Shown: positions 7,743 through 58,685 of the stretch, in pieces
Layout: every line of letters begins with the position of its first letter
How positions within the stretch are numbered: position 1 is the first letter of the stretch
Sequence record: PQ850622.1
From: Escherichia phage OliverMaurmann_Bas86
DNA length: 64,000 bases
Direction: 5' to 3' (one strand)
The notes under the pieces: model-generated
What the model was told of the DNA's origin: nothing
The model's input: only the letters and a program-made list of their open reading frames with translations
Database searches by the model: none
Translations under genes and position numbers: made by a program

Positions 7743-8255
7743 ATGGCAATGCCTGACTTAAAGGGTGTTTTTACTTATAACCAAGACACTGGACACCTCT
7801 TTTGGTCTATGAGTAATGTTTATAATAAGAAGAAAGGACAGAGAGCTGGTTGCATTAATAACAAAGGCTACAGAGTTCTGACCTTTAAAAATAAATCTTA
7901 TTTAGAGCACAGAATCATTGCAGAGTTATTCTTACCTAAAGTGGAAGGAAAGAATCAGATTAATCATAAGAATGGGATTAAGGATGACAACCGCCTAGAA
8001 AACTTAGAATGGTGCACAGGTAGTGAGAACTGCTTACATGCTATTAGTATAGGTCTTAGAGAAGTGAAAAGTTTAGAGGAAAATCCAAACGCTAAACTTT
8101 CTAAAGAGGATGCTCTATTCTGTCTTCAGAACTATAAGCCTAGAAGCCGTCAGTTCGGAGCTAGAGCATTGGGTCGAAGATTTGGAGTATCTAAAAGTAC
8201 AATCAGCCTTCTTGTGAAAGGCGAAAACTGGAAGGAGTTATTATATGATGCCTGA
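7743..8255 (+). CDS. HNH homing endonuclease (HNH_3-type with N-terminal Y..DTG.L.W motif)
   Basis: 170 aa; motifs GYRVLTF...HRIIAELF...INHKNGIKDDNRLENLEW; preceded ~40 nt upstream by TAATGTATT. Confidence 0.8.
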   Translation: MAMPDLKGVFTYNQDTGHLFWSMSNVYNKKKGQRAGCINNKGYRVLTFKNKSYLEHRIIAELFLPKVEGKNQINHKNGIKDDNRLENLEWCTGSENCLHAISIGLREVKSLEENPNAKLSKEDALFCLQNYKPRSRQFGARALGRRFGVSKSTISLLVKGENWKELLYDA

Positions 8256-8988
8256 TGTTCAATATCCCATCAATACCTACGGATGGCTCAAGAAAGCTGT
8301 GTCCCTCTGGGCTGACAGGGATGATGATGAATTTGTTAATCAGATTCCAAACTTTATTAACTTTGCAGAGAAAGAAATCTATCGTAACTTACGAATTCCT
8401 CCTCTGGAAAAAGAAGTATATTTAGATATTAAAGATGGTGTGGCTTTTATTCCACCAGACTACTTAGAAGCTCAGTGGATGATGAGAGCAAGTAATGGAC
8501 ATATGTTCCGAGTAACTTCTCCAGAAGAGTTAGATTGGCTGAAAAGAAATAACTCAGTAAACCCAACTAACTGGAATCAGGGAGAAGTGAGTTTTACTAG
8601 GTTGGGAAGTCGGTTCCTGTTCTACCCAGCCATCAATGCTGATACTCCGGTCTACCCTGATGATGGAAGCCCTCTTATTCCAGCGGAGAATTCGGTAATT
8701 CTTAGCTATTATGCAGACCCTCCGGAGTTTCATGAGGATTCTGATACAAGTGCAATTTTAACAATAGCTCCAGAGCTTCTTCTATATTTCACATTACGTC
8801 ATGCAAGCTTATTTGTCCAAGATGATAATGGGGTTCAGAAGTGGTCTGCTTTAGGGAAAGCTATTCTAGATGAGGTAGTTGAGCAGAGTAAGAAAGCTGA
8901 ATACTCAGGCTCTCCTCTAGTTATTCCTAGAACTATTGACCGTCTTCACAGCTCTCGTGAGTTGTATGGAATCAAACACTACAGTTAA
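8245..8988 (+). CDS. Virion structural protein (function unassigned)
   Basis: 247 aa ORF with GAAGGAG RBS, between HNH insert and tail fiber genes. Confidence 0.45.
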   Translation: MMPDVQYPINTYGWLKKAVSLWADRDDDEFVNQIPNFINFAEKEIYRNLRIPPLEKEVYLDIKDGVAFIPPDYLEAQWMMRASNGHMFRVTSPEELDWLKRNNSVNPTNWNQGEVSFTRLGSRFLFYPAINADTPVYPDDGSPLIPAENSVILSYYADPPEFHEDSDTSAILTIAPELLLYFTLRHASLFVQDDNGVQKWSALGKAILDEVVEQSKKAEYSGSPLVIPRTIDRLHSSRELYGIKHYS

Positions 8989-8997
8989 GGAGAGATT

Positions 8998-11568
8998 ATG
9001 ATCGTTTATAACAACCAAGCACCAGCTAATCCTAATAATGTTGGTCAGTTTGGTGCTACAGAAGGCTCTATCGGAGCCTATAAACAAGCAGCGGAATATG
9101 CTGCTGATTCTAAATATTGGGCACTTTTAGCAGAATCTAAGTTTGGGACAATTGATGACCTGATTGCACAGGTAGAGCGTCTATACCAACAAGGTGTTTT
9201 ACTCCGAGAAGATATTGAAGATCTGAAGCAGGATTTTGCTGCTCAAGACGTTCGCTTAATGAACCTGATTGCTCAAACAAACGCTGCTGTTGCAGATGCC
9301 AATAACTCAGTTGCACTTATTGATCAAAAGATTGTAGAAGTCCAGAAGCAATTGGATATTCTAATGGATATGAAGGTTACTGTCACTACCCTGCCTCCGG
9401 GTTCTCAAGCTACTGGCTCTTTTGATAACCAAACTGGTGAGATTAAGCTGGGAATTCCTGAGGGTGAAAAAGGTGCAGATGGCTCTGTAACTGACTTATC
9501 AACAGTATCTTCTGGGGTTCCCGAGTTAGGGGATTTAGGTTTTTATGTAGACAAAGATAATAACACTGTACATAAAACCACTCTAGAAAACATTGCTAAC
9601 CTGATTCCTTCTGTTCGCTCTATCTCTGTCAATGGTGGAGAGGCTCAGGATGGTGACGTTGCTTTGGATATTAATAAAACCACAGTGGGTTTAGGTAATG
9701 TTCTTAACGTAGCTCAATACAGTCGTCAAGAGATTAATGATAAGTTTGACAAACCTGTTAAGATTTATCAATCCAAAGCAGAAGCAGATGCAAATGCCCA
9801 ATATCGTCAAGAGGGTGAATCTGTTTTAGTTTGGGAAGATACTCGGTATGTGTTCTACACTGTTGCTGCGAATAAAACCTTAACTCCGGTTAAGTCGGAA
9901 AGTCGTATCTTGACAGTAAACTCAAGATCACCTGACTCTACAGGTAATATTGATATTACAATACCTACAGGGAACCCTTCTCTATATTTGGGTGAAATGG
10001 TAATGTTTCCATATGATCCTAATAAAACTGTATCATACCCCGGTGTGTTACCTGCTGATGGTCGGTTGGTTTCTAAAGAAAACGCCTCTGATTTAGGTCC
10101 ATCTCTTGTCAGTGGACAATTACCAGTAGTTAGCGAGACTGAATGGCAAGCTGGTGCTAAGCAGTATTTCTCTTGGGGTAAATTAGCTGATGGCGTTACT
10201 GATGCGGATTCTACTAACTACATCAATATTCGACTTCCTGATTGGACTGGAGGGGAGGCAATAAGAGCACCAGATTCTGATAAAGATTCTCAGTACAATG
10301 GGGCTGTACAAGCTCAGAAACCTTATGTTGTCACGGTAAATAACCAAACTCCTGATGAGATTACAGGGAACGTAAACCTCTCCAGATCTATCTTAGGAGC
10401 GGCTTCTTCTGGTGCAAACTCCGACATTACATCTTTATCTGGACTCACAACGCCGTTATCCATCTCTCAAGGCGGGACTGGATCTACAACCGTAGACGGG
10501 ATTCGTAATGCTTTAAAAATAACCCCATTTACCAGTGAAAATAATCACGCATTTATCTTCTCACCGAACTTGTTAAACAGGGCTGTGTTGAGGGATGATG
10601 GGTACTTTATCATACAAGAGAGAAGCAGTACCTCATCTGATAGCTGGGAGCCTAATCCGATATCTATAGAAGCGGGTGGTACTGGAGCATCTACAGCCAG
10701 TGAGGCACTTGTTAATCTTGGTTTAGGTCCAACAGCTACTCTCAACGTCATACCGGTTGCCAATGGCGGTACTGGAGCAACTAATGCTGCTGGCGCTCGT
10801 TATAATTTAGGATTGGGGAGCGTTTCTACTCTTGATAATGTACCAATCGCCAGCGGTGGTACAGGTGCTGGGGATGCCGCTGGTGCCCTAGGCAACCTTG
10901 GAGCATTGAGTAACACTCCAGCAAATACAGGTACAGGTGGTACTGGTGCGCGAGTCCAACATGCCGCCGGAAGTGGCCTGTTTACTTTAGACATGTTTAA
11001 CTGCTACTGGTATATGCAGCCAGAGGATACTAACTTCTGGGTTGCCCACGGTGTGTCATATGCAGGAGCTGGTGGCGAAGCCTCAGGTTATGGTCGTATA
11101 TCTTACGCAATAAAGATTGCAGATGGAACAACAAAATATGTCCATTGTCTTACAAACAAAAACACTATTATTGATACAGGCGGGTTTATCAAAGCGGCAT
11201 CTCCGGTAGTTAATATTTATGCCAACGGTCAATATGAAACGAATGATGAATCTGAGGGGGTTAGTGTCATCCGGCAGGGTATTGGTGAATATCTGATTAC
11301 TGGTTGCCTCGGTCTTAACTCTGATGCAAGATGGGGTGGGGTGGATGGTGGGTTTGAAATCCCAACAGATCGCAATAAGCAGCCTAGGATTTGGCTGGAC
11401 TATGAGGTTAAAGAAGATGGTTCTATTTCAGTTAAAACCTATCACAGAACTCACCCAACCTCTCCAGTTTTTGCTAGAAATGAGATAGAAGGTTTTGCTG
11501 ATGGAGACCCTATTGATATTCCAAGTGATGCTTTTATCTCTGTTCGTGTAGAGATGCCATCCAAATAA
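8998..11568 (+). CDS. Tail fiber protein with Gly-rich phage-fiber repeats
   Basis: 856 aa; N-terminal coiled coil; repeated (A/S)xGGTGA..A....NLG(L)G motifs in residues ~470-640. Confidence 0.65.
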   Translation: MIVYNNQAPANPNNVGQFGATEGSIGAYKQAAEYAADSKYWALLAESKFGTIDDLIAQVERLYQQGVLLREDIEDLKQDFAAQDVRLMNLIAQTNAAVADANNSVALIDQKIVEVQKQLDILMDMKVTVTTLPPGSQATGSFDNQTGEIKLGIPEGEKGADGSVTDLSTVSSGVPELGDLGFYVDKDNNTVHKTTLENIANLIPSVRSISVNGGEAQDGDVALDINKTTVGLGNVLNVAQYSRQEINDKFDKPVKIYQSKAEADANAQYRQEGESVLVWEDTRYVFYTVAANKTLTPVKSESRILTVNSRSPDSTGNIDITIPTGNPSLYLGEMVMFPYDPNKTVSYPGVLPADGRLVSKENASDLGPSLVSGQLPVVSETEWQAGAKQYFSWGKLADGVTDADSTNYINIRLPDWTGGEAIRAPDSDKDSQYNGAVQAQKPYVVTVNNQTPDEITGNVNLSRSILGAASSGANSDITSLSGLTTPLSISQGGTGSTTVDGIRNALKITPFTSENNHAFIFSPNLLNRAVLRDDGYFIIQERSSTSSDSWEPNPISIEAGGTGASTASEALVNLGLGPTATLNVIPVANGGTGATNAAGARYNLGLGSVSTLDNVPIASGGTGAGDAAGALGNLGALSNTPANTGTGGTGARVQHAAGSGLFTLDMFNCYWYMQPEDTNFWVAHGVSYAGAGGEASGYGRISYAIKIADGTTKYVHCLTNKNTIIDTGGFIKAASPVVNIYANGQYETNDESEGVSVIRQGIGEYLITGCLGLNSDARWGGVDGGFEIPTDRNKQPRIWLDYEVKEDGSISVKTYHRTHPTSPVFARNEIEGFADGDPIDIPSDAFISVRVEMPSK

Positions 11569-11578
11569 ATTTAAGAAT

Positions 11579-11611: not shown

Positions 11612-13759
11612 ATGTCTAGAGAATTAATGCCCAAATCTGGGATAATGATGCCTCACGTGGTAGTTACTAGAGATGCCGCAGTAGTGGGTGTATCTACTGT
11701 AGATGGGGCCGCTGGTGCTATCAACTTAACAGAAAAATACCTTCAGAAATCTGACGCTGAAGCAACCTATCAAACGAAAGCAGAAGGGGCTACTAAGCAA
11801 TATGTAACCGATGCTATTAACCCCATTATGACGAATGCTCTTTTTAAAGATGACCCCTTTGTCAATAATGACACACCTATCCGCTCCGGTGGTGGTAATG
11901 GTGTTGAATCGGTAGATATGATTAAAGTCACCCCTGAGAACACCATCAAACTAGGGAGCTATGCTTCTTCTGTTCAGGGGGTTGAGATTCATTCTGCTGG
12001 TCGTCTTCAGGTTGTTGATCAGAACGATTCTGGAGTCGAAACTAAATATCCGGTATACTCCAAAAGATATCGCCCAGAAGTTGAGGATTTACCTTTCGCT
12101 TCAATCGGTTCCTACGTCAAAGATTCCAAAGGACGCACTATTGGTGTAACTCGTACTGGTATCAACTCTGATATCAAACAGTTTACGCAGAAGGTAACTT
12201 TCCAGCAACCTGTTACTGTTCCTGATGCTGTAGGTGATTATGATGCAGTTACACTGAGACAGCTTCGTAACAGTAGTGGAGGTTCTGGTGGTCCTACCAT
12301 GAGCGGTATCTCCAACTTTGGTATTGGCGATTTCCATCTTCGTGATAGTCGTGCTTTTATCCCAGCTTTTGAAGTTTTGTCTGACGGGCAGCTTCTGAAT
12401 CGTGCTGACTACCCAGATCTGTGGGCTTATGCACAATTATTGTCACCTATAGAGGATTCAGAGTGGGTAGATGACATTTACCAACGAGGTAAATACTCTA
12501 AAGGAGATGGCTCCACTACTTTCCGTGTTCCAGACCGAAATGGTATTCAGCTTAACTCCCTTCCGGCGCTTTATGGACGAGGTGATGGTGGAGCTTCGGC
12601 TGCTAATGGTCTAATATTTGATGCTGCTGCTCCTAATATTTATGGGGATATTGGTGGTGTTGTTGCTTATGGTCAGACTGGAGCTATCGCCAGAGGGCAG
12701 GAAGAAACGGCTCTCGCCCCTCAACCTAGCACTGGTAATGGTGTCTTGAGGGTTAGTTTAAATGCCTCACTAGTCAGTCCTGTTTATGGTCGTTCCACTG
12801 ATGAAATCCTAACCCGTAACTTTGTAGGCGTTTGGACTATTCGTGCGCATGGTGGTTTTACTGCTGCTAATACTTCTTGGTCAGTTATTAATAGTGATGC
12901 AAACCGTCCTGCTGGTGGAACTCGAGCAACTAGTGGTTCTATTATTGCTGAATATAAAATTGGTTCAGAAGTAGAGGCTTCTACTACGCTCCAAACTGAT
13001 GCTTATATCGACGGAGCTTACTATGGGGTTATCAATGTTTATAATAAAACCAAAGGAGTTACCAAGCAACTATCTTTTGACGATTCTGGAACCCTGAACT
13101 CTGATAGATATGCTGCTCGGTTTGGGACATTGATGACTTGGAGCGAAACAGGAAGTCGCAGAGGTACTTTTTCTATAGACAACCAAGGGATAGGGACTAA
13201 CTTCTCCTTCAACTCCATACTAAGTGCCTCTCAAGCAACTAGTGGGGGGTACAAAACTACCACCCATGTTGGCATGATTCACAACGATACTGGATCTTTT
13301 GCTGATTCCTGCTGGCATGTTGCAGGGGATGAAGACAACAAATACGGTTGTCGTTTAACCCTTAGACCAAGCAGGAATGAGATTTATTACTACACTTGGC
13401 AGCCCGGCTCCACTGGAACTTACACTCTTGCTATGAATCCTGTGTCAGATGAAAGGTTGAAACACAACATTCAAGACCTCTCGCCTGATGAAGCAATTCG
13501 TGCGATTAAAGGTTTGGACTTCAAATCGTTTGTGTACAACAATGATAATCAAGGAAGAACTCGTCGTGGTATCATTGCACAGCAGGCAGAGAAAGTTGAA
13601 CCTCTTTATGTTAAAACTCGTAAATTCCATGACAACGATGGGGTAGAGCAGGAACAGAAAGAGTTGGATGCAACTCCAATGCTTTTAGATACCATGCAGG
13701 TTGTTCAAGATCTGCTGAAGCGTATTGAAGTTCTAGAAGCGAAGTTAGCAGAGAAGTGA
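11612..13759 (+). CDS. Tail fiber/spike protein with C-terminal intramolecular chaperone (peptidase S74-like) domain
   Basis: 715 aa; C-terminal ...NPVSDERLKHNIQDL...GLDFKSFVYN...GIIAQQAEKVEPLYV... resembles the auto-cleaving chaperone domain of endosialidase-type fibers. Confidence 0.7.
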   Translation: MSRELMPKSGIMMPHVVVTRDAAVVGVSTVDGAAGAINLTEKYLQKSDAEATYQTKAEGATKQYVTDAINPIMTNALFKDDPFVNNDTPIRSGGGNGVESVDMIKVTPENTIKLGSYASSVQGVEIHSAGRLQVVDQNDSGVETKYPVYSKRYRPEVEDLPFASIGSYVKDSKGRTIGVTRTGINSDIKQFTQKVTFQQPVTVPDAVGDYDAVTLRQLRNSSGGSGGPTMSGISNFGIGDFHLRDSRAFIPAFEVLSDGQLLNRADYPDLWAYAQLLSPIEDSEWVDDIYQRGKYSKGDGSTTFRVPDRNGIQLNSLPALYGRGDGGASAANGLIFDAAAPNIYGDIGGVVAYGQTGAIARGQEETALAPQPSTGNGVLRVSLNASLVSPVYGRSTDEILTRNFVGVWTIRAHGGFTAANTSWSVINSDANRPAGGTRATSGSIIAEYKIGSEVEASTTLQTDAYIDGAYYGVINVYNKTKGVTKQLSFDDSGTLNSDRYAARFGTLMTWSETGSRRGTFSIDNQGIGTNFSFNSILSASQATSGGYKTTTHVGMIHNDTGSFADSCWHVAGDEDNKYGCRLTLRPSRNEIYYYTWQPGSTGTYTLAMNPVSDERLKHNIQDLSPDEAIRAIKGLDFKSFVYNNDNQGRTRRGIIAQQAEKVEPLYVKTRKFHDNDGVEQEQKELDATPMLLDTMQVVQDLLKRIEVLEAKLAEK

Positions 13760-29584: not shown

Positions 29585-29635
29585 TAGATGTTAGAATCCA
29601 TCGAATTCATCATACATCCCAATTTTCTTCTTCAA

Positions 29636-29902
29636 TCACAAGACCTCCCAATCATCTGCAAACAAATCACCCTGAGATGGAACCCATCCGGGTTGCATAA
29701 TACCCTGAGCATTCTTTAAGTCTAAATGAGGGGCGATGACGAATCGACCAGTGATGCCAGCTTTTTCATAATCAGAACCCGGTCGAGCTTCTTCTACTTC
29801 ATATCCACCTTCTTTGATGATGAACTGATTTGCACCATTCCAACCAGAGCGAGCAATCCTCTTCCCTTCTTTTACTTTAATAAGCGCTGAACTGAAATCC
29901 AT
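29636..29902 (-). CDS. DUF2829-like small protein (possible Tad2-type anti-defense sponge)
   Basis: 88 aa; N-terminal FSSALIKVKEGKRIARSGWNG and C-terminal DWEVL resemble the family as recalled from memory. Confidence 0.4.
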   Translation of the reverse strand: MDFSSALIKVKEGKRIARSGWNGANQFIIKEGGYEVEEARPGSDYEKAGITGRFVIAPHLDLKNAQGIMQPGWVPSQGDLFADDWEVL

Positions 29903-29910
29903 TTGTTCTC

Positions 29911-30213
29911 CTAGATTAAATCGTAATACTTAATAATATCAGAGAGCTTAAACTCTCGAATGTCATTCTTATCATTGTCCCAAGCGGTCATTATCCAACA
30001 AGGTTTGCCCCCATTATGATAACGGGAAGAAGCAACTGAGGTTCGTAAAGGAATAACGGAGCGGTCTGCAATCTCGCCTCTCCAATTACGATAGCTAAAG
30101 CGAAGAACTTGTTTCGTAGATACTTGATCATGTGTGTTTTCCTTGTTCATAGATTCAAAGATTTCCCTTTCTTCAGGAGTCTCTAGATTTTTTAAATTCG
30201 CGTCTTGCATCAT
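29911..30213 (-). CDS. Hypothetical protein
   Basis: 100 aa ORF; no recognised motif. Confidence 0.4.
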   Translation of the reverse strand: MMQDANLKNLETPEEREIFESMNKENTHDQVSTKQVLRFSYRNWRGEIADRSVIPLRTSVASSRYHNGGKPCWIMTAWDNDKNDIREFKLSDIIKYYDLI

Positions 30214-30577
30214 TCTCTTCCTTAGTTTTTATCTTATGGCAAGGCTCTTTGCATAAGACTTGAAAACCATCTTTCTCAACTAAAGCCCTCTCGATGATTT
30301 CATCCCAAGTAGCTTCATGGTCCACTGGGACAATAGGCTCTATATGGTCTACTGCTACGTCTTTAAGAGGAGAATCATTACCACACATAGCACACTTATA
30401 GTGCATTGCCAGTTTGCCAGTTTTAGGGTTGATTTTACGTTCTGTCTGAGCCTCTTTGAGAGAATCAAACATAGGTTTCCATTTCCTAGTCAGAGAACGA
30501 ATCCCTGACTTAATGAAGGAGTTATAACGTGCTTCAGTCCACTGACCAGAGCATCTTGTCTTCTCAGCTTTCGCCAT
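30173..30577 (-). CDS. HNH endonuclease
   Basis: 134 aa; CAMCGN...VDHIEPIVPVDHEATWD...LCKEPCHKIKT. Confidence 0.7.
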   Translation of the reverse strand: MAKAEKTRCSGQWTEARYNSFIKSGIRSLTRKWKPMFDSLKEAQTERKINPKTGKLAMHYKCAMCGNDSPLKDVAVDHIEPIVPVDHEATWDEIIERALVEKDGFQVLCKEPCHKIKTKEENDARREFKKSRDS

Positions 30578-32826: not shown

Positions 32827-32850
32827 AAGTCATCCTTAACTTACTTTACA

Positions 32851-33075
32851 TTAAACTACACAGAATAAATACATTGCTGTTTCAGGGGAAGGTATGTGGT
32901 CACTAGGATATCTAACCCTAATCCACTCATCATCTTCTGCTACATAATAAGCCCAATAAGACCCATTTTCATTAATAAAGAACTTGAAGGTACAACCAAA
33001 GATTTGGTTATTGTGTTCCCATACTGCATGAAACTGAGTAACACCTTCTGGTATTGTAAGTTCCGCTCTGATCAT
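32851..33075 (-). CDS. Hypothetical protein
   Basis: 74 aa ORF. Confidence 0.35.
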   Translation of the reverse strand: MIRAELTIPEGVTQFHAVWEHNNQIFGCTFKFFINENGSYWAYYVAEDDEWIRVRYPSDHIPSPETAMYLFCVV

Positions 33076-33371
33076 TGTATTCCTCTCTCCTTTAGAGCTT
33101 TAAGCAAACCGTTGTGGTTAGCGGCACAGGTTGTATAATTGTCCTGATACCACTCGAGTGTTGTTGCAAGTGCTACTCCCTGTCCACTCTGAAGTAAAGG
33201 GAGGTCTACATCACATTCAGCTTTTAGGTTTGTTGGTAAGGGCATTAGCTGCCTGCTGTTGTCGCTCGTTGAACAAGCCATCAAACTAGAAGCGAGCAAA
33301 ATCACCAAACAACTCTTTTGCTTTTTCTTTGTAAGCATTTTCTGCACCTTCTTGAGTGCTATGATAACCAA
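33072..33371 (-). CDS. Lipoprotein (o-spanin candidate); true start probably the internal Met (MLTKKKQK...)
   Basis: Signal peptide with lipobox L-M-A-C (KKKQKSCLVILLASSLMAC); small mature domain with 3 Cys. Confidence 0.4.
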   Translation of the reverse strand: MVIIALKKVQKMLTKKKQKSCLVILLASSLMACSTSDNSRQLMPLPTNLKAECDVDLPLLQSGQGVALATTLEWYQDNYTTCAANHNGLLKALKERGIQ

Positions 33372-33780
33372 GCCAAATTACTTTGTTTTGATATCCGATA
33401 CGAGCACTCCATTTATTAATATCTGACCTGTATCCTACACCTTTTATTCCAGTTAAAGAGTTCTTTTGAACTATTTTATTGGCATTGTTGAGGACAGGTG
33501 TTGCTTTTCTTAGATTGCTCCAAGAGTTATTAGACTTATCTAAATCTTTATGGTCTATTTGGAAATCGGGAATTTCTCCAGTTTTTATATACCAAGCAAC
33601 TCGGTGAGCTTTGTATGTCTTTCTCTGAAAATTCAATGTTACATAACCAGCTTTTGTTTTACACCCTGCAACCTTTCCTGCGAGTCTTGAGTTCCACTGA
33701 GCGCTCTTATCTTTAGAATGTTTCCAGTACAGAAGACCGGAAGCCTCGTCATAAGACAGATATTTAATTAATTCTTTAAT
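33286..33780 (-). CDS. HNH homing endonuclease (HNH_3 + AP2-like), predicted ATT start
   Basis: ORF track starts at TTG 33636, but the frame stays open upstream and encodes the conserved N-terminal YLSYDEASGLLYW module; only candidate initiator is ATT 33780-33778, 7 nt after GGAGG. Confidence 0.55.
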   Translation of the reverse strand: MKELIKYLSYDEASGLLYWKHSKDKSAQWNSRLAGKVAGCKTKAGYVTLNFQRKTYKAHRVAWYIKTGEIPDFQIDHKDLDKSNNSWSNLRKATPVLNNANKIVQKNSLTGIKGVGYRSDINKWSARIGYQNKVIWLGYHSTQEGAENAYKEKAKELFGDFARF

Positions 33781-34109
33781 TTCAGTGCCTCCGCTGCTTG
33801 TTGTTGTCGTTCATTGAAAAGTCCTACATACTCATCACTAGCACACACATTGTAAAAAACTGGCTTAGTCTTTTCATAATGCATCTCTTTGTAAATAGTT
33901 TCCGTGTTCTTCTTCCAGTTAGATAAACCAGTCAGAACTTTCTGAGCCACTTCATCAGCAGCCTTAGCTCTCTCAACCTCAATCTCTTGCTGTTTCTTCT
34001 CTTGGTCAAGAGCATTACTATCACTTCTGTATTGCTCAAACTTGACACCACCAAAGAAAACCAGAGCTGTGAAGATTAAAAAACCTATATTGTTTTGAAG
34101 CTTTTCCAT
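33768..34109 (-). CDS. Membrane-anchored coiled-coil protein (i-spanin candidate)
   Basis: N-terminal TM segment IGFLIFTALVFFGG then charged coiled coil; ATG 34109 with GGAG RBS preferred over the GTG 34133 of the ORF track, which lies inside a terminator hairpin. Confidence 0.45.
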   Translation of the reverse strand: MEKLQNNIGFLIFTALVFFGGVKFEQYRSDSNALDQEKKQQEIEVERAKAADEVAQKVLTGLSNWKKNTETIYKEMHYEKTKPVFYNVCASDEYVGLFNERQQQAAEALKLKN

Positions 34110-34122
34110 TTTAACTCCAACG

Positions 34123-34145
34123 AAAAAAGCCACCCGAAGGTGGCT
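34123..34145 (-). terminator. Rho-independent terminator after SSB gene (AGCCACC-UUCG-GGUGGCU + U6 on - strand)
   Basis: Read directly; near-identical hairpin recurs at 37031-37054. Confidence 0.6.
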
Positions 34146-34167
34146 AAGCTATTACAAGGAGAGATTC

Positions 34168-37654: not shown

Positions 37655-37846
37655 TCAGCTCTTCCACGGGAGGTTGATGGTTAAATTCTTAATAGAGAAA
37701 TCTTTATCAGGAAACTCTTCCATTAACTCAGCCGCTTCTTGAATAGCTTTTCTTTCTGTGTTATAGATGCAGAAATGTCCATTACAGCAAACAATTGCAT
37801 CTTTTGCTCCCGTAATGGCCCATGTTTCATGTACATGTCTAGTCAT
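37655..37846 (-). CDS. Hypothetical protein
   Basis: 63 aa ORF immediately upstream of DNA polymerase gene. Confidence 0.4.
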   Translation of the reverse strand: MTRHVHETWAITGAKDAIVCCNGHFCIYNTERKAIQEAAELMEEFPDKDFSIKNLTINLPWKS

Positions 37847-37863
37847 TATTCCTCCACTACAAA

Positions 37864-39708
37864 TTAGTGAGTGTGATTCCAGTTTAACCCAATCTTACAA
37901 TCAGATGCAAGAGGACATTCCATTTTGAGGTATTCACCTGCTTTACGAACACACTCTTCAGTGAGGGTACGAAGTTTGTTAACATCGTCACGATGTACAG
38001 TGAACTGGCCTTCATCATGCATGTCAATAACCTTCGCACAACGAACACCATCACGCTCAATCCATTTATTAAGGAATAGCATTGCATACTTCATAACAAT
38101 CGCCCCAGCGCTCTGTAAGAGAGTGTTTAAGGCTTTATGAACCATAACCTTTCCAGTTGCATCTCTTCTCATTGTAATACGACGTCCATCCACACCGTAG
38201 ATGTATCCACTTTGTGCTTTCTCTGTCATACGTTCAATAAGAATTGCAATACAAGGATTCTCTGCTAAGAATCTTGCCCTCATGACAGCCCCTTCATCAG
38301 AGCCACCACCTACGATGCTTCCTAACTTAGCGTCACCAGCTCCGTAGTTGAATGCATAGATAAACGTTTTAGCATTATCACGAGTAGGAAGGCCAGCAAG
38401 TTTTTGGTTATGTGAGTGAATATCTCCTTCTAAAAGAATATCTCTGTACATAACAGCAGAAGCTAGACCGCGTTCAGCTTCTCGTTTCTTAGCTGGGTTG
38501 TTTTCCTGCTCTGCTTCAGCGAGCATCTCACGACATTCTTTGATAAGGTAATGAGCAAGCATCCTCAGCTCAAGACCAGAGCCATCGTAACCTAAGAAGA
38601 TTTCACGACCAGCAGGTACATAAAATTTATAAGCACCTATTGGTTTGTCTTTCTTGCCCGGTTTTCCCATTTCGTAGATAATGTTAGTACCCTTTCGTAC
38701 GTAACACCCATCAGGGATATGGTTGGTAATGATGAAAGGATGGTTATGACTATCGTCTGAGGAATAGTCAGATTGAAAAAGACTGCGGCACTCGTGACCA
38801 AACAAACCGCGAGAAGGAATATTAACAACAATGCGATGTTTAAAACGAAATGTCGGAGTAGCGCAGCTATTAGCTTCGGCGGACAACTTACCATCTTTAC
38901 GTTCCTTGTCGATAAGCCCGCTAATCAAACCTAGCCTGTGAGCCGCTACAACGCGTCTCTTAAGCAAACTTCCTACACCCCCTAGCTCACCCCCAAGCCC
39001 CTCTTCAAGAGTCTCCTCAAGGTTTGTAGGGGCTGTAGGCCACTTGTTTGATGTAGCCAAAGCTTTTTTGATTTCATCAAAGGTTACAGGCTTCTTCCTA
39101 TTAGGGTTGAGACCTAAACCGCTGACATAGGCTTTCATATAATTGACAGTGTGATAACGGAAGTGCTTATCCAAAAACCTTCGGATATCAGCATCTATCA
39201 TCTCTGCTGTCTGTTTCTCTTTAGCGTTACCTCGAATCCAAGCAGAATACCATGCAGAGTATGTACCATACTTCTTCATAGCTTTACGAATTTCAAAAGT
39301 ATTCCAAGGTTTCTTAGAATAATTCCACTCTGGAGGTATAAAACCTTCATCCATCAAGGCTTCTTTGATACGTGCATCTTTTGATGGGTCAAAGTCTACA
39401 TACTCAACGCAAGTAAACGCCCCACCGATATCTTCTCTTTTAAGACCAACCCTATCACAATAGAGTTGAGGCCACTTCTGCAAAGCACCGGACTTCTTAA
39501 AAGGTTTAGAATAAGTTGAACCATCCACCCGCATTTTGGGGAGGAGAGGAATCAGTTCTTTATCAATATTGACAATAATCTCTTTGAGAAGATGAACAAA
39601 CCACCGAGCGTTTCTTCTGTTGAAGTTGACTCCATGCTTCGCCTGTTTTGAGATTATATCAGCGACTGTCATCTCCGTTATGAAAGGTAACTTATCAGGG
39701 TTATCCAT
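37864..39708 (-). CDS. DNA polymerase, family A
   Basis: Motif A DGSGLELRMLAH, motif B RDNAKTFIYAFNYGAG, motif C MHDEGQF; ATG 39708 with GGAG RBS preferred over the GTG 39711 of the ORF track. Confidence 0.9.
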   Translation of the reverse strand: MDNPDKLPFITEMTVADIISKQAKHGVNFNRRNARWFVHLLKEIIVNIDKELIPLLPKMRVDGSTYSKPFKKSGALQKWPQLYCDRVGLKREDIGGAFTCVEYVDFDPSKDARIKEALMDEGFIPPEWNYSKKPWNTFEIRKAMKKYGTYSAWYSAWIRGNAKEKQTAEMIDADIRRFLDKHFRYHTVNYMKAYVSGLGLNPNRKKPVTFDEIKKALATSNKWPTAPTNLEETLEEGLGGELGGVGSLLKRRVVAAHRLGLISGLIDKERKDGKLSAEANSCATPTFRFKHRIVVNIPSRGLFGHECRSLFQSDYSSDDSHNHPFIITNHIPDGCYVRKGTNIIYEMGKPGKKDKPIGAYKFYVPAGREIFLGYDGSGLELRMLAHYLIKECREMLAEAEQENNPAKKREAERGLASAVMYRDILLEGDIHSHNQKLAGLPTRDNAKTFIYAFNYGAGDAKLGSIVGGGSDEGAVMRARFLAENPCIAILIERMTEKAQSGYIYGVDGRRITMRRDATGKVMVHKALNTLLQSAGAIVMKYAMLFLNKWIERDGVRCAKVIDMHDEGQFTVHRDDVNKLRTLTEECVRKAGEYLKMECPLASDCKIGLNWNHTH

Positions 39709-39724
39709 CACCCACTCCTTATAG

Positions 39725-40078
39725 TTATTGGTATATTAAATCTGTGAATGCTTGGTTGTCTTCAACAATATCTAAAGCTTCATATGAATCAGCCAATTCA
39801 TCCACATAAAAGACTGCTGGAACATCTTCTGCTCGCTGTCTACGAGCTTCTCTCTGTTCATTACTATCCCTCTGAACCTGTGCTAGTTTCATCCCCCACA
39901 CCTGCTCATACAGCTCTGGATACTTATCGCTAACCACCACAAAGTTTCGAGCTGGTTGGTTTCGGTTAATCTTCGCTGTCAATTCGATAAACTGACGAAA
40001 CTCTTGAATAGAGAGGTTATCATGGATATTGTCCCACTTGAGAACGCAGTGTCGTTCTAGGCGTTGAGGTACTGGCAT
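39725..40078 (-). CDS. Hypothetical protein
   Basis: 117 aa ORF. Confidence 0.45.
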   Translation of the reverse strand: MPVPQRLERHCVLKWDNIHDNLSIQEFRQFIELTAKINRNQPARNFVVVSDKYPELYEQVWGMKLAQVQRDSNEQREARRQRAEDVPAVFYVDELADSYEALDIVEDNQAFTDLIYQ

Positions 40079-40648: not shown

Positions 40649-40963
40649 TTAACTAGAGCTTAAAGCTCCTTTGCGACCGCCTGCTGATTTTCCAGCACGA
40701 TCTCCACTTTTGCCGCCGTTCGAGCGATTTCGAGAGACTGATTCAACACGTAAGTTACTTGACGCATTAGAACCTCCCGACTTGATTGATCGTTTATGTC
40801 CAACGTCTTTACCTCGGACAGCAGCTTTTCCATCGCGCTTTTCAACGATGCGACGTGCACGGTGGCGCTGAGCATCTCCGCTCTTGCTACCAACACCTGT
40901 CTCCCCACGTTTGATTGCGGTACGTCTTTCTTGCTCATAATCTCTTTTCGCCTTATCCGTCAT
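40649..40963 (-). CDS. Highly basic Gly/Ser/Lys/Arg-rich small protein
   Basis: 104 aa; GAGGA RBS 9 nt upstream of ATG. A 92-aa helical ORF (40660-40938) overlaps on the same strand in another frame. Confidence 0.4.
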   Translation of the reverse strand: MTDKAKRDYEQERRTAIKRGETGVGSKSGDAQRHRARRIVEKRDGKAAVRGKDVGHKRSIKSGGSNASSNLRVESVSRNRSNGGKSGDRAGKSAGGRKGALSSS

Positions 40964-41333
40964 TGTTAGTTATCCTCTGATTGAAAGTGTGAATTGCGTG
41001 GCAGTTAGCGCAGAGGATTCTGCACTTCTTCATCTCTGCCTTCACTTGAGAAATTGATCTCGTGTGACCTTGAGATAGCTCAAAGGATTTTTCAGAGGGG
41101 TTAATATGGTCAAACTGGAGAGCAGAAGCGTGTTCTTTATAGCCACACAGAGAGCATCCGTAAAAGGTTTTAACTCTTCTGATGAATACTAATTGTCGAT
41201 TTCTTCTCTCTTCATTGTAAAGCCTACGCTTCTCCCTATTAGCTGGGTCCGCGTACCTGCACCTGTCTGAACAGTATTTTTGAAATACAAACCTCTTCTC
41301 AAATACTTCTTGACAAGTAGGACAAACATCCAT
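40953..41333 (-). CDS. HNH endonuclease (zinc-binding)
   Basis: 126 aa; CPTC...C..C, then FDHINPSEK...CANCHAIH; preceded ~45 nt upstream by TAATGTACT. Confidence 0.7.
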   Translation of the reverse strand: MDVCPTCQEVFEKRFVFQKYCSDRCRYADPANREKRRLYNEERRNRQLVFIRRVKTFYGCSLCGYKEHASALQFDHINPSEKSFELSQGHTRSISQVKAEMKKCRILCANCHAIHTFNQRITNNDG

Positions 41334-41408
41334 GTTACTAACTCCTCCTTAAAATCCTTATAGGTAAGTACATTACATAGCATCAAGCACAGCTATCATA
41401 TGCTACTT

Positions 41409-42324: not shown

Positions 42325-42645
42325 TCAGATTGATTTGTCCTTATGTAAACGGTATACTTCAGTAGTCATACAAGCTATACGCTCGTCATGTGGGAGATGC
42401 ATACCAGTAGAGCCGTTCCATCCTTCGAACTCTGAATCAAAGAATCCAATAGGCTCGGGATACATCTCTTGCAAGGTGGTTAAGTCATCAGCCACTTGTT
42501 GCCACTTATCGTCAGACCAGATTGGGTCATCCAACCAATAATACAAATAGGAGTGGATAAGCATCTGTGTTCTGTGTCGTTTAATCACTTCAGCAGGACT
42601 GATTTCATTTCCGTTACCAGTCCTAAATGTACTATCGTTGATCAT
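42325..42645 (-). CDS. Small protein resembling the N-terminal Ia domain of NAD-dependent DNA ligase
   Basis: 106 aa; HSYLYYWLDDPIWSDDKWQQVADDLTTLQEMYPE parallels E. coli LigA [35 protein letters not shown] (from memory). Confidence 0.4.
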   Translation of the reverse strand: MINDSTFRTGNGNEISPAEVIKRHRTQMLIHSYLYYWLDDPIWSDDKWQQVADDLTTLQEMYPEPIGFFDSEFEGWNGSTGMHLPHDERIACMTTEVYRLHKDKSI

Positions 42646-42831
42646 TTAGATAACCTTGTGCTCGTAGATGCTGGGGTTGAAATAATGCAACCAGTTTATA
42701 TATTGTTTCTGTTCAAGGTAGTGTCTGCAATCATGACAAAAAGCATGACCCAAACCTGTTTCCTCGTTCAGCTTGAAGTTGATAAGAAGCTTCTGCTTTT
42801 GACAGAAGCTACATGTTTTGTATAAGTCCAC
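42646..42831 (-). CDS. Small zinc-ribbon protein
   Basis: 61 aa; CSFC ... CHDC. Confidence 0.4.
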   Translation of the reverse strand: MDLYKTCSFCQKQKLLINFKLNEETGLGHAFCHDCRHYLEQKQYINWLHYFNPSIYEHKVI

Positions 42832-42976
42832 AGTTTTACCTATTCATCTGAATTGTGACTACAACAATACTCACAAACTCCGCAGCAAGGACAAATCTCT
42901 ACTGTAGGGTCGTAAGCATCATCAACTGTCATACCGCACCGTGTACAGAAAACATCATCATCGTTTTCTTCCAAAA

Positions 42977-43624
42977 TTAACTCTCCAAAGTTTTCTTCAA
43001 AGCTGCCCATGAGATTGGATAGAGTTTAGCCATCTCTTCATCTAATGACTGAGCAAATAGTCGAACTTCATATTGAGCATGGGATGATAGTCGTTGACGA
43101 CACAATTCAAACCAGCCATACAAGCTACCAGTCCAGTACCAAGTAGTTACCATACCTTGAGGTAAAACAAATCTAGCTTGTTCAGGAGCTACGAACTTAA
43201 TCAATTCGTCATAACTAGCAAGAGATGCCTCGTACGCAGAGTTAAACAAAGCTAAAGCTTTTGCCTCTTCCTCCCCTTCAAGAAGTATTCCAGAACCAGA
43301 ATGTAGATCATCTGGACGGGAGAAGATTTCTTTAGGTATGAAAATATCCACTGCTCCATCTTTATATCTACGACTCATCTCGTTCCAAGAAAAACCAACT
43401 TGATGCTTCTGTAACTGTCGTGCAATTGCTATAGGAGCTTCGCATCTGAAGCTCGCTTGTGGGTGACGAAAAGGACTTACGTGTCGTTCCCGAGCTAGAA
43501 AATTTATTAGACGAGTGTCACTTTCTTTTAATTCTTCCCTTTCTACCCCCATAGTTACACGAGCAGCATTGACTACTGTAAGATCTGAACCGAAGTTATC
43601 AATTAATGAAGCTTTGATTGTCAT
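42977..43624 (-). CDS. thyX: Flavin-dependent thymidylate synthase (ThyX)-like protein, divergent signature
   Basis: 215 aa; collinear with ThyX but the RHR....S motif reads KHQVGFSWNEMSRRY. Confidence 0.7.
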   Translation of the reverse strand: MTIKASLIDNFGSDLTVVNAARVTMGVEREELKESDTRLINFLARERHVSPFRHPQASFRCEAPIAIARQLQKHQVGFSWNEMSRRYKDGAVDIFIPKEIFSRPDDLHSGSGILLEGEEEAKALALFNSAYEASLASYDELIKFVAPEQARFVLPQGMVTTWYWTGSLYGWFELCRQRLSSHAQYEVRLFAQSLDEEMAKLYPISWAALKKTLES

Positions 43625-44090
43625 TTATGTAAGTCTCCTTGACTTTATTATATTCCCTAGAGGCTTCTTCTATGGTTGAGAAGAGTCCTATGTGCTTAGA
43701 TTTAAATACCGCCCGGTAAGCAATAGAGCCACTTTTCCTTCTATGGACAGTCACTCCAATCACTCCGGTTGATAAATTATTACTCTGAGCTACTTTGTTT
43801 AGGCCATTTCCTGATCTAGTAGTCCCCCTAAGATTCTCTCTTTTGTTGTTTATCCTGTTGCGGTCTATGTGATCTACTTCTTCAGGAAGCAATCCAGTGT
43901 CCCACCAGTAAGCAAGTCGATGAGCGTAGTATCTAGCACCTTTATAAACGATTCTCAAATACCCATTGGTATTTACAGAACCAGCTATAGACCCTTTGTG
44001 TCCTTTTCCATAAGTTTTAACCCATCGGAAATCTCCAGTCAAAGGGTCGTAATCAAGAGCTTCTTTTATTGACGGGTCAATATCATTCAT
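43599..44090 (-). CDS. HNH homing endonuclease (HNH_3 + AP2-like)
   Basis: 163 aa; YDPLTGDFRW, GYLRIVYKGARYYAHRLAYWW...VDHIDRNRINN. Confidence 0.75.
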   Translation of the reverse strand: MNDIDPSIKEALDYDPLTGDFRWVKTYGKGHKGSIAGSVNTNGYLRIVYKGARYYAHRLAYWWDTGLLPEEVDHIDRNRINNKRENLRGTTRSGNGLNKVAQSNNLSTGVIGVTVHRRKSGSIAYRAVFKSKHIGLFSTIEEASREYNKVKETYINDNQSFIN

Positions 44091-44105: not shown

Positions 44106-44381
44106 TTATTTATTGCCTAGAGCTGTATCCAAAAATGCTTTCAGGTTTGCTTCAGTCTGCATACCGGAGAGGCTGTAGTGTGCACCACTGTTACGGTCAG
44201 GCACAACGAAAGCAGGGATACTTCGTACACCATACTTAACAGCTTGTTCACGACCATCACCTTCAAGGATGTTAATCTCTTCCACTTCTACATCAAACTC
44301 CTTAACAACCTTCTCAAAGGTAGGAGCCATTGCTTTACATGGAGCACATGAATTACTATAAAATTTAATTACTTTACTCAT
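44106..44381 (-). CDS. Thioredoxin/glutaredoxin-like protein (CAPC active site)
   Basis: Start refined to the internal ATG (MSKVIKFYSNSCAPCK) with AAGGA RBS; CxxC in thioredoxin-fold context. Confidence 0.65.
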   Translation of the reverse strand: MSKVIKFYSNSCAPCKAMAPTFEKVVKEFDVEVEEINILEGDGREQAVKYGVRSIPAFVVPDRNSGAHYSLSGMQTEANLKAFLDTALGNK

Positions 44382-44571
44382 TCTATTCCTTGTTAATAAA
44401 CAGATTGATATGGCGCTGAGTAGCAGGGACAACAATAAAAGATTTATACTGCCCTTTTGCTAAATCATGAGCAATCTTCTTTGTCTGACCAAGACCCATT
44501 ACACAGCCACTAACAATAATGGCATGTGCTTGTAATTCTTCAGGGAGGTTTAATTTCACTCTTTGGATTCC

Positions 44572-44757
44572 TTACAGCATAACAAGAACGATAATAAGAG
44601 GTAGTGTTATAGCAAAATGTACCAGAACAACACTACCTAGCTTGATAGCTTTAACATCCTCTTCTGCTGGGTTTTCTTTAATTGCTAAATTTCGAGCTTT
44701 ATAGATAATAGTACCAACTATTAACGACCACACGGCCCACACAACCAATGAAATCAT
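44572..44757 (-). CDS. Small two-TM membrane protein
   Basis: 61 aa; two hydrophobic segments separated by a charged loop. Confidence 0.45.
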   Translation of the reverse strand: MISLVVWAVWSLIVGTIIYKARNLAIKENPAEEDVKAIKLGSVVLVHFAITLPLIIVLVML

Positions 44758-44766
44758 ATCAAACCC

Positions 44767-44946
44767 TTATGCAGTCAGAAGGTGAAGCAGGAATGGGATA
44801 ACAACAGCTACGACAACCATGATGGTTGATGCTGTTTGAATCTCACCTTTCTTGTCAGGGGTTTCTTCAATAAGCTTACCAGAAGCCCAATAGATACCAC
44901 CGCCAATAAAGATAGCCCAAATACCCCATACGATTGCTGATAACAT
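44767..44946 (-). CDS. Small two-TM membrane protein (59 aa), paralog of 44572-44757; absent from ORF track
   Basis: MLSAIVWGIWAIFIGGGIYWASGK... parallels MISLVVWAVWSLIVGTIIYKARN... Confidence 0.4.
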   Translation of the reverse strand: MLSAIVWGIWAIFIGGGIYWASGKLIEETPDKKGEIQTASTIMVVVAVVIPFLLHLLTA

Positions 44947-45007
44947 ATATCTATATCCTTATAAATGAGTTCGCCCCACCTCGGGTTAGGAGACAGGGCG
45001 GAGGTTT

Positions 45008-55598: not shown

Positions 55599-55675
55599 TT
55601 TCTAATCCACCTGAAGGGTAAACCCTTTCATCTAATTAACCTTTAAATGCGCCCTGTATAAGAGCGCCCGTTGTG

Positions 55676-57399: not shown

Positions 57400-57408
57400 A
57401 ATATCACC

Positions 57409-58218
57409 TTATACAATCTGGAGTTTAGAGGAGAATTTATCCGCTTCTTTAACATCGTTGCTGTTGATGATGTTATGAAGCTTTTCGATTGGAAGACGAG
57501 AGTGAAGTGACATCAACACTTCCATATCACAGCCTTGAACAACCTTATCCACTTGCTCATAAACAAACTTGCGGGTTGACTTCTCACCAATCCAGAAGTT
57601 AGAAAGAGAACGATATTCAATACCGTAGTCCTTGTAACGAATAGCAGAAGCCTTTCCGTACAACTCTTTACGACGAGTGTCTTTATCCATGATTACAGCT
57701 GGCAAGGACAGGAAGTAATCACACAGCACACCCAACATCATTTGAGTTTGTCGATTGATCTCCAAAGTTCCAGAGACACCGAGGTGCACATGGCCCCCAG
57801 CAGTACGCAAACCTTTATCGGTTGCGACTGGTGAAGGGTTCTTTTGTCCAGTGAAGGCGTTGAAATCAGGAGTACAGCCAAATACAAAAGCTGACGGATG
57901 GAATGATTCAAGCTCTTCTGAAGTGAACACATGAGAGCTAATCCCAAGCGCTGCTTCCAGACCACGATCATTCAGGATTTTGTTAGTCAGATCAATACCG
58001 CGCTGAATATTATCATCAAACGCTTCAAACCCTTTCTGTGGGTTAATATCAAACTCAGCCAGAACGTTGTCTTCTTGAAGACGAACATCAGGAGCCAGAT
58101 CAATTTTGTTATCTTTAGAACATCCCAGCTTACCAGCCACAGAGGTGATAATACCGGAAGCAGTACGAACAAACATTTCCGGATCCGACCCTATTAAGAA
58201 TTTACGTTTAGTAGTCAT
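57409..58218 (-). CDS. Second GS-like COOH-NH2 ligase (phage amidoligase type)
   Basis: 269 aa; GSDPEMF and GGHVHLG. Confidence 0.5.
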   Translation of the reverse strand: MTTKRKFLIGSDPEMFVRTASGIITSVAGKLGCSKDNKIDLAPDVRLQEDNVLAEFDINPQKGFEAFDDNIQRGIDLTNKILNDRGLEAALGISSHVFTSEELESFHPSAFVFGCTPDFNAFTGQKNPSPVATDKGLRTAGGHVHLGVSGTLEINRQTQMMLGVLCDYFLSLPAVIMDKDTRRKELYGKASAIRYKDYGIEYRSLSNFWIGEKSTRKFVYEQVDKVVQGCDMEVLMSLHSRLPIEKLHNIINSNDVKEADKFSSKLQIV

Positions 58219-58685
58219 GCTTTAGTCCAACCTTTATGAGATAGATAGTTTTTAAATCTGCCACTGTGCACAGCGCCCATGTGGCCTTGATGTAAGTCGT
58301 TGCTTCTACAGAAGTCTCTAAGATTGTATATTGTTACAACCTCGCCATCTGGAGATCTAAACTTCCAAAATCTAGCATTCCCTTTCACAGCGTTTTCTTC
58401 ACTGGTCAGAAGTTGGAAATTACTTGGGTGGTTATTAAGTTTATCGCCATCGATGTGATCAACAGTCATACCATCCGGAATAGGCCCAATAAACAATTCA
58501 TACATAAGTCTATGTAATAAAAAGTTCCTTGTTATCTTTTCAGGAGCCTGAACTGTTGTAAACTTAAGATAACCATCTTTATCAGGAAACAGTTTCCTCT
58601 GTTTCCCTGTTCTTGCATGGAATATACTACCGTCTTCGAACACCAAGAAGGTAGCAACTCCGACTACTAACTCCCTAAATTCCAT
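58215..58685 (-). CDS. HNH homing endonuclease inserted in amidoligase cluster
   Basis: 156 aa; HRLMYELFIGPIPDGMTVDHIDGDKLNNHPSNFQLLTSEEN. Confidence 0.75.
   Translation of the reverse strand: MEFRELVVGVATFLVFEDGSIFHARTGKQRKLFPDKDGYLKFTTVQAPEKITRNFLLHRLMYELFIGPIPDGMTVDHIDGDKLNNHPSNFQLLTSEENAVKGNARFWKFRSPDGEVVTIYNLRDFCRSNDLHQGHMGAVHSGRFKNYLSHKGWTKA

Follow-up and report, generated by a model that had tools for sequence, protein, structure and literature searches.

Free-standing homing endonucleases of phages include the seg and mob genes of T4, which are the subject of a review (PMC2988022), and mobE is treated in a further paper (PMC2790892). A GIY-YIG homing gene has been described between the two spanin genes in the T5-like phages Shivani and phiR201 (Kongari et al. 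2018, PMC6139136). In a conserved locus of the Gordonclarkvirinae, homing endonuclease insertions were described as the only breaks of synteny (BASEL paper, PMC11990801). Here, we analysed a stretch of 64,000 nucleotides from Escherichia phage OliverMaurmann_Bas86 (PQ850622.1; the whole stretch is called the window below), in which a first-pass annotation had listed six HNH homing-endonuclease genes, named H1 to H6 in this study (Table 1). We conclude, with a probability of roughly 80%, that H1, H3, H4, H5 and H6 are free-standing homing endonuclease genes and that H2 is the core HNH gene of the phage group.

Distribution of the six HNH genes in phiEco32-like phages

The first 25 kb of the window matched 128 phage records, nearly all of them phiEco32-like E. 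coli podoviruses (Gordonclarkvirinae), to which the window itself belongs by its sequence. AnnaHegner_Bas87 (Bas87), at 96% identity, was the best match, and SU7 and NC-B came next. Structural genes (terminase, portal, capsid, fibres, ejection proteins) form a rightward block that extends to ~29.5 kb, and the replication and metabolism block runs leftward after it. We compared seven full genomes (Bas87, SU7, NC-B, TH43, TH42, TH38 and EcM-vB1) and added partial loci from PAS59, EK010, KM01, phiEco32, ECBP2 and NJ01. The last three were contributed by a scan of IMG/VR with PhoH, which returned 6 loci, mostly from known isolates, and gave no population-level sample. Presence in the seven genomes was determined by tblastn, and counts in the phage database refer to records at 60% identity or above.

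We found that five of the six genes are sporadic. Each of them occurs in 6-11 of ~98 related records, and close relatives have empty sites that can be defined to the base. NC-B is ~95% identical to the window and lacks all five. The number of HNH genes per genome by profile count was 6 in the window and in SU7, 4 in TH38, 3 in Bas87, 2 each in TH42 and TH43, and 1 each in NC-B and EcM-vB1, and the sole HNH gene of the last two is the orthologue of H2. The first-pass annotation had expected the HNH genes to mark spots that vary between related phages. This expectation was borne out at five genes with exact empty sites, so the six are not all fixed, and it failed for H2, which has the same position in every relative. 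The gene neighbourhoods it had described (between capsid and tail genes, between spanin-like genes, next to PhoH and ThyX, and inside the amidoligase cluster) hold for five of the six genes. Its description of a heavy load of selfish elements needs a similar correction: within this group, where genomes carry 1-6 HNH genes, the load is high, it is not unusual for phages generally, and it consists of five homing-type genes, with H2 being core.

The sporadic genes are under purifying selection. The ratio of nonsynonymous to synonymous divergence (dN/dS) was 0.09-0.18 for H3 and 0.12 for H5, and for H1 and H4 dN was ~0.2 with saturated dS. Orthologues of H2, H3, H5 and H6 with 90-100% identity are annotated as HNH endonuclease in Gordonclarkvirinae records (SU7, Bas87, YF01, EK010).

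Table 1. HNH genes of the window and the sequence features around their insertion sites
Feature	Position	Strand	Description	Presence in the seven genomes (tblastn)	Database records
H1	7743..8255	+	HNH_3 nuclease, 170 aa; inserted cassette 7758-8247, 490 bp	TH38 only, 75%	11
H1 left target repeat	7749..7757	+	9 bp, ATGCCTGAC; single copy in empty sites of Bas87 and NC-B		
H1 3' end	8230..8256	+	new ribosome site GGAAGGAG, new ATG at 8245; right repeat ATGCCTGAT (8248-8256)		
H2	30173..30577	-	zinc-finger HNH, 134 aa; fixed core gene, not mobile here	all seven, 68-99%	98
Rz1 (o-spanin)	33072..33338	-	88 aa, ATG at 33338; new signal peptide MLTKKKQKSCLVILLASSLMAC		
Native copy of duplicated target segment	33247..33279	-	downstream of H3; gives lipobox Cys and mature Rz1		
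H3	33286..33780	-	HNH_3 and AP2, 164 aa; cassette 33279-33792, 514 bp, inside overlapping Rz/Rz1	Bas87 100%, SU7 90%	8
H3 proposed ribosome site and start	33778..33792	-	GGAGG, 7 nt, ATT (33780); within the last Rz codons		
Rz (i-spanin)	33768..34109	-	113 aa; cassette-derived C-terminus ...GLFNERQQQAAEALKLKN; phrog_1152 Rz-like spanin, E 2.6e-33		
Recoded duplicate of Rz target segment	33791..33824	-	keeps GLFNERQQQAA, disrupts the old Rz1 frame		
Native Rz1 signal-peptide remnant	33824..33877	-	MKRLSQFFTMCVLVMSM, then stop; intact NC-B signal is MKRLSQFFTMCVLVMSMSAC		
H4	40953..41333	-	zinc-finger HNH, 126 aa; cassette 40964-41407	SU7 only, 71%, unannotated there	11
H5	43599..44090	-	HNH_3, 163 aa; inserted at the ThyX (thymidylate synthase) start codon	SU7 91%; Bas87 with a different, 40%-identical HNH at the same spot	8
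H6 downstream copy, working ligase start	58186..58218	-	most codons recoded vs empty allele; overlaps H6 stop as ATGA		
H6	58215..58685	-	HNH_3, 156 aa; cassette 58213-58687	SU7 only, 99%	6
H6 upstream copy of ligase start region	58688..58717	-	native sequence; now a 16-codon leader ORF ending inside H6		

HNH motifs of the six proteins

All six genes are intact open reading frames (ORFs) with HNH profile support, as the first-pass annotation had proposed. H1, H3, H5 and H6 matched Pfam HNH_3 (PF13392) above the curated cut-off (1.3e-12, 6.5e-14, 2.9e-10 and 2.8e-17, respectively), and H3 also has an AP2 domain. H2 and H4 remained below the Pfam thresholds and matched several HNH endonuclease families of PHROG, with E values of 2e-37 for H2 and 1.4e-28 for H4 (phrog_2255). 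H4 also gave a sub-threshold match to PF01844 (residues 60-113, E 0.048) and carries the residues CSLC...FDH...CANCH. Homologues of H2 bear precomputed PF01844 matches, and the CxxC...DH...CxxCH pattern of H2 (D77-H78, H114 and the two CxxC pairs) is conserved in 47 homologues. Across H1, H3, H5 and H6, the residues H75, N83, N87 and N96 are invariant, which fits the HNN form of the motif. The catalytic His, the structural Asn and the metal-binding Asn/His of the HNH superfamily (beta-beta-alpha-metal) are thus present.

The four HNH_3 proteins share only 22-28% identity pairwise, which argues that they are separate arrivals and not internal duplications. In sequence searches, H3 weakly matched I-HmuI (PDB 1u3e); H2 and H4 gave no significant match in PDB sequence searches, and H2 was placed solely by fold comparison. 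NCBIfam returned nothing useful for any of the six proteins. A six-frame search of the window with the six proteins, and with two profiles derived from these, found no seventh HNH gene. A 62-aa ORF at 44773-44958 with marginal similarity to H6 (E 0.03) was considered as an HNH remnant and ruled out, as it is a full-length member of phrog_9296. Together, the six HNH genes occupy 2,757 bp, or 4.3% of the window.

Anatomy of the insertion sites

The insertion point of all five cassettes (~450-515 bp) coincides exactly with the 5' boundary of a conserved gene. This displaced gene is given a new ribosome site and a new start by the 3' coding end of the cassette, so that no host function appears to be lost. 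Duplicated target segments flank three cassettes (H1, H3 and H6). Two of the duplicates (H3 and H6) are recoded, and the N-terminus of ThyX next to H5 is also recoded and altered. Every HNH gene is a separate ORF with its own stop, and none lies within an intron or intein; no Rfam family, intron models included, reached its gathering score in the whole window.

H1 is located between the gene of an Ig-domain head protein and a gene at 8245-8988 that matches phrog_2941 (virion structural protein). This site is empty in Bas87, NC-B, SU7, TH42, TH43 and EcM-vB1. All 11 database records with H1 have it at the same site, and the best allele is 75% identical. In the empty alleles, the structural gene starts as AGGAGG-7 nt-ATG GCA ATG CCT GAC GTT..., and H1 begins on this AGGAGG ribosome site and the first 5 codons (MAMPD). 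The 9-bp sequence ATGCCTGAY is found on both sides of the 490-bp insert. More distant relatives of H1 (40-45% identical) are present in Bas89, 4E8, EK010, YF01 and SGF2, and TH42 (71226-71813) carries a ~500-bp HNH gene, 40% identical to H1, inserted where the window (40666-40677) has nothing.

Between PhoH and a conserved 104-aa gene, the H4 cassette takes the place of a 46-bp spacer; the site is empty in Bas87, NC-B, TH42, TH43, EcM-vB1 and NJ01. H4, which has an AAGGAGG ribosome site of its own, ends with a stop that overlaps the start of the next gene (40963), and it provides the GAGGA ribosome site of that gene. The best database alleles are 63-72% identical and mostly unannotated (11 records). 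Homologues that are ~71% identical to H4 (SU7 42877-43227, ES17, PGN6866, 1-6af, FH3, PH444) are intact ORFs without annotation in most records. The missing annotation is likely due to the lack of an ATG start, and these homologues represent hidden HNH genes within published genomes.

H5 starts on the ThyX ribosome site and ATGAATGA. ThyX restarts at 43624, 26 nt before the H5 stop, behind an AAGGAG in the H5 3' end. H5 is 91-99% identical in its 8 records, including PAS59 and SU7, and its site is empty in EcM-vB1 and phiEco32. Bas87 and ECBP2 have a different HNH gene (40% identical to H5) at the same ThyX site, and the unrelated insertion of Bas87 is constructed like that of H5.

H6 is inserted at the 8-nt overlap of a conserved 316-aa gene and the COOH.NH2 ligase gene, which in relatives is a ATGACTAA stop/start overlap. 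The site is empty in Bas87, NC-B, TH42, TH43, TH38 and EcM-vB1, where the two flanks of H6 overlap by 27 bp on the subject. These 27 bp of the junction are duplicated by the cassette.

H3 and the split Rz/Rz1 spanin genes

The H3 gene was found at the spanin locus every time, with identities of 100% in Bas87, 90% in SU7, 87% in PAS59 and 66% in EK010, E20-1 and KM01. The site is empty in NC-B, TH42, TH43, TH38, EcM-vB1, phiEco32, NJ01 and ECBP2. In the empty alleles, Rz ends with ...YVSLFNERQQQAANALTNKPKS, and Rz1 starts within Rz in another frame. When the two flanks of H3 are aligned to NC-B, TH42 and TH43, they share 31 bp of the subject sequence, which is the duplicated target segment (Table 1).

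The Rz protein of the window has an N-terminal hydrophobic stretch, IGFLIFTALVFFGGV, so that both the membrane segment and the Rz homology of an i-spanin are present. The native Rz of NC-B ends with ...SLFNERQQQAANALTNKPKS; in the window, a new tail, EALKLKN, is added after the recoded duplicate. In EK010 and KM01, nearly all codons of the duplicate are changed, so it is more heavily recoded than that of the window.

For Rz1, the coding sequence of the new signal coincides with the last 17 codons of H3, read in the +1 frame. phrog_2425 matches the Rz1 of the window and the native Rz1 alike, and the SU7 record annotates the equivalent ORF as O-spanin. The new signal is MLTKKKQKSCLVILLASSLMA followed by C and the native NC-B signal MKRLSQFFTMCVLVMSMSA followed by C; judged by eye, the positions next to the Cys match a typical lipobox. 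EK010 and KM01 have an equivalent Rz1 signal, VHIKKKLLSCTGILLAFSLSAC, behind AAGGAG. The spanin repair is therefore kept in two H3 lineages whose proteins are 66% identical. Among 12 HNH genes, the +1 frame of the 3' end is free of stops in three spanin-resident genes and in H6, and it resembles a signal peptide only in the spanin-resident genes; that of H6 is not signal-like. Between the window and SU7, dS in the dual-coding stretch was 0 vs ~0.5 elsewhere.

We found no ATG, GTG or TTG at the 5' end of H3 (33780), and the ORF from a canonical start covers 33286-33636. Upstream of the first canonical start, 48 codons have a dN/dS of ~0.18, which indicates that this stretch is translated. The H3 alleles of EK010 and KM01 show the same geometry at the homologous position, with GAGGG, 7 nt and ATC, ~10 nt before the Rz stop. 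This pattern indicates that H3 likely starts at ATT or ATC, possibly coupled to the termination of Rz. A -1 frameshift from Rz into H3 was also considered and rejected: the window-type alleles have no X XXY YYZ heptamer, and an Rz-HNH fusion would go to the periplasm. The Rz frame of EK010 and KM01 does contain a T TTA AAA (U UUA AAA) slippery heptamer ~10-20 nt before the Rz stop, where the -1 frame is the HNH frame; it is probably coincidental.

The 5' half of H3 (33400-33800) is 84-92% identical to SU7, and the flanking Rz and Rz1 are 98.5-100% identical. Judged by this profile, the nuclease gene is mosaic relative to its own flanks.

Taken together, these data allow a tentative proposal, to which we give somewhat less than even odds. 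The H3 cassette would be a co-adapted, dual-coding module that rebuilds two overlapping lysis genes by means of a recoded Rz C-terminus and a working Rz1 signal in the +1 frame of its AP2 coding end, with low-level translation from ATT/ATC coupled to the Rz stop. All five cassettes would follow one rule of taking over the signals of the target gene, in H1 and H5 including the start codon, and supplying a replacement. If this is true, expression of the nuclease is tied to late lysis-gene expression, and the take-over-and-replace rule could predict insertion sites of homing genes and guide the choice of neutral payload sites in phage genomes.

H2 as the core HNH gene of the group

H2 was found at the same position in all seven relatives, and its 98 records represent essentially the whole phiEco32-like group. 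Its dN/dS of 0.04-0.15 indicates strong purifying selection. A 46%-identical homologue in a distant 50-kb phage contig has a similar place, downstream of DNA polymerase and a 5'-3' exonuclease. The predicted model of H2 (mean predicted local distance difference test, pLDDT, 94) has an HNH fold. Its nearest solved structures are HNH nucleases, of which the packaging-type HNH of GVE2 is the closest.

As a small zinc-binding HNH protein conserved throughout a phage group, H2 resembles the packaging class. However, the proximity to terminase genes or a cos site that is expected of this class was not observed: H2 lies at the end of the replication block, by the exonuclease gene, ~30 kb from the large terminase (1-1542, placed by correspondence to the SU7 annotation). 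A putative small terminase has been reported upstream of the large terminase (PMC9965538), and some relatives' records label H2 as small terminase. We call H2 neither a member of the packaging class nor a homing gene. It is a vertically inherited core HNH, and its role is probably in DNA processing or packaging rather than homing.

Homing and its alternatives

From the established behaviour of free-standing phage homing endonucleases, we infer a cut-and-copy mechanism for the five sporadic genes. During co-infection with a relative that has no cassette, the nuclease would cut or nick the empty allele near the insertion point, and recombinational repair from the cassette-bearing genome would copy the cassette together with some flanking DNA. 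The carrier would be immune, its target being split by the insertion and the duplicated half recoded. The sequence itself shows that the nuclease gene is read from the expression signals of the conserved gene: H1 and H5 take the ribosome site and start codon, H6 follows the retained ligase start, and H3 apparently starts at ATT in the last Rz codons. H3 is the extreme case, with Rz restored by the recoded duplicate and new tail and Rz1 apparently by a signal overprinted on the 3' end of the HNH gene.

The flanks were compared for traces of such copying. The window ThyX (43000-43600) is 83-91% identical to the H5-bearing SU7 vs 67-74% to Bas87, NC-B, TH42 and TH43, and the region around ThyX shows the opposite pattern. 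This suggests that divergent ThyX alleles are linked to the type of the neighbouring HNH gene. At H6, the identity to Bas87 falls from 100% to 89-97% over ~1.2 kb on one side only.

Several points weigh against the homing reading and its details. Homing of the five genes is deduced from distribution and anatomy in the sequences. The flank patterns lie in a mosaic genomic background, so that they are no more than suggestive of co-conversion. H1 and H4 have no near-identical database allele (at most 75%), and recent transfer cannot be documented for them. At H3, the ATT start and the function of the overprinted Rz1 signal are predictions, and the dS of 0 spans only 17 codons. For H2, the distance from the terminase genes sets it apart from classical packaging HNH genes.

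The sporadic genes could be kept for a benefit to the phage, such as exclusion of co-infecting relatives, degradation of host DNA or anti-defence, and be spread by selection and not by gene conversion. They are indeed intact, under purifying selection and wired into host-gene expression without damage, and competitive or anti-defence effects of phage homing endonucleases have been reported (PMC13096335). Nevertheless, each gene is absent in ~90% of the close relatives that share its flanking genes, NC-B and EcM-vB1 manage without any of the five, and the different HNH lineages at one ThyX site are typical of site-targeting elements. We consider a benefit in place of homing improbable; as a benefit is compatible with homing, the two do not exclude each other. 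It is very unlikely that the five genes are ancestral and that the relatives lost them by deletion, with no insertions having occurred. Gain and loss cannot be polarised from the distribution alone, and the H3 alleles are old, as their lineages share 66% identity and dS exceeds 2. However, the empty alleles keep the compact native layout of distant relatives (the stop/start overlap at the H6 site, the overlapped Rz/Rz1 and a 38-46-bp spacer), and the occupied alleles contain extra duplicated and recoded target copies and the inactive remains of the native Rz1 signal, all of them traces left behind by an insertion. Deletion would need the precise and independent removal of the duplicates many times.

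The Bas87 record annotates the Rz-like spanin as a join() spanning the HNH gene, which would agree with H3 lying in a self-splicing intron of Rz, with Rz being restored at the RNA level. We regard this as barely credible. No group I or group II intron model of Rfam matches 32800-34400, even at E up to 10; GLFNERQQQAA is found on both sides of H3, and an intron would not give rise to such a duplication; the Rz ORF upstream is complete and ends in a stop of its own; and Rz1, with a separate start and signal, requires the downstream piece in another frame. A group I intron carrying H3 was rejected on the same grounds, as the flanks show no intron RNA core and are duplicated instead. Finally, H2 might also be a homing endonuclease gene that has become fixed in the group by a sweep. 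The PHROG families to which it belongs are annotated as HNH endonuclease, and some of its database homologues are labelled homing endonuclease. The 98 related records contain no empty H2 site, though, and the similar neighbourhood in the distant contig, the strong purifying selection and the closest solved fold, a packaging-type HNH, all speak for a core gene, so this possibility is unlikely. Homing of the five sporadic genes together with a core H2 remains our preferred interpretation.

Other variable regions of the window

The segments of the window that are private compared with close relatives are the five cassettes, the Ig-domain and tail-fibre receptor regions, and a few small ORFs. Three segments (6464-7623, 10434-11391 and 12551-13444) have no nucleotide match in the closest relatives. 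They correspond to the Ig-domain head protein and to the distal portions of two tail-fibre genes, as would be expected if decoration and receptor-binding modules had been swapped. Small accessory ORFs at 29590-29906, 37668-37862 and 44377-44898 vary among relatives with no nuclease gene near them; one of them is an 88-aa ORF (29636-29902) that matches phrog_1048.

Variation in relatives was also seen at places where the window has no HNH gene. In SU7, an HNH gene at 39422-39898 splits the DNA polymerase into two annotated pieces, and the window polymerase (37864-39711) is uninterrupted. Therefore, the window appears to hold the empty allele of a sixth homing site in the group. At window position ~42642-42646, Bas87 has a 472-bp insertion with a 159-aa ORF (Bas87_0053) that matches only phrog_19703 and phrog_1972, and TH42 and TH43 have ~900 bp at the same point; the variability there is not explained by HNH genes.

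We also searched the window for TAATGTATA, which we take to be the middle/late promoter motif of phiEco32. With one mismatch allowed, 26 copies were found vs 18 +/- 4 expected. The enrichment is not clear, and we make no promoter claim.

Significance and comparison with known systems

In a phage group that is used in therapy, this study maps the insertion sites of five homing genes to the base. Since matched empty alleles exist in named and available phages (NC-B, Bas87, SU7), homing crosses and target-site mapping are feasible. Not every phage HNH gene should be called selfish, as is habitually done: a core HNH, candidate for a role in packaging or DNA processing, is set apart here from the mobile ones. 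The spanin case illustrates how selfish elements spare their host and how overlapping genes become uncoupled. These results do not change the current understanding.

The pattern of HNH insertions was already known for the Gordonclarkvirinae, and the finding is real, well explained and ordinary. Compared with the recorded insertions in SU7, Bas87, YF01 and EK010, the window phage combines six HNH genes, and its H1 and H4 alleles are at most 75% identical to the phage database. Compared with packaging HNH proteins (HK97 gp74, GVE2 HNHE, Gme HNH), H2 is not beside a cos site or terminase and is known from its sequence and a model.

The HNH_3 genes of the window are similar to the free-standing homing endonucleases of the I-HmuI/HNH_3 type (T5 hegI, F-Tfl nucleases, T4 MobE). 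They share the PF13392 catalytic motif, and T5 hegI is 43% identical to H3. As with these enzymes, the proteins are small and their C-terminal DNA-binding module varies (AP2 or helix-turn-helix); the genes lie between conserved phage genes or at the edge of one, and their presence among relatives is sporadic. Unlike the characterised HNH_3 enzymes, the window genes, at most 43% identical to any of them, are known from sequence alone. Further differences are the starts of H1 and H5, which use precisely the target gene's own start codon, and that of H3, which is apparently ATT.

The closest parallel to H3 is found in Shivani and phiR201, where a homing gene likewise splits an ancestrally overlapped i-spanin/o-spanin pair. 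In both cases, the extreme C-terminus of the i-spanin and the signal of the o-spanin are changed and the mature parts are conserved. In contrast to those phages, the element here is an HNH_3 and AP2 protein in another phage group and another spanin family, the new signal peptide lies inside the H3 gene in the +1 frame, and the recoded duplicate of the Rz end is visible. The split of the spanin genes by H3, in which both genes stay intact, is thus a second, independent example; the enzyme is of the HNH type, and the overprinted signal can be seen more clearly.

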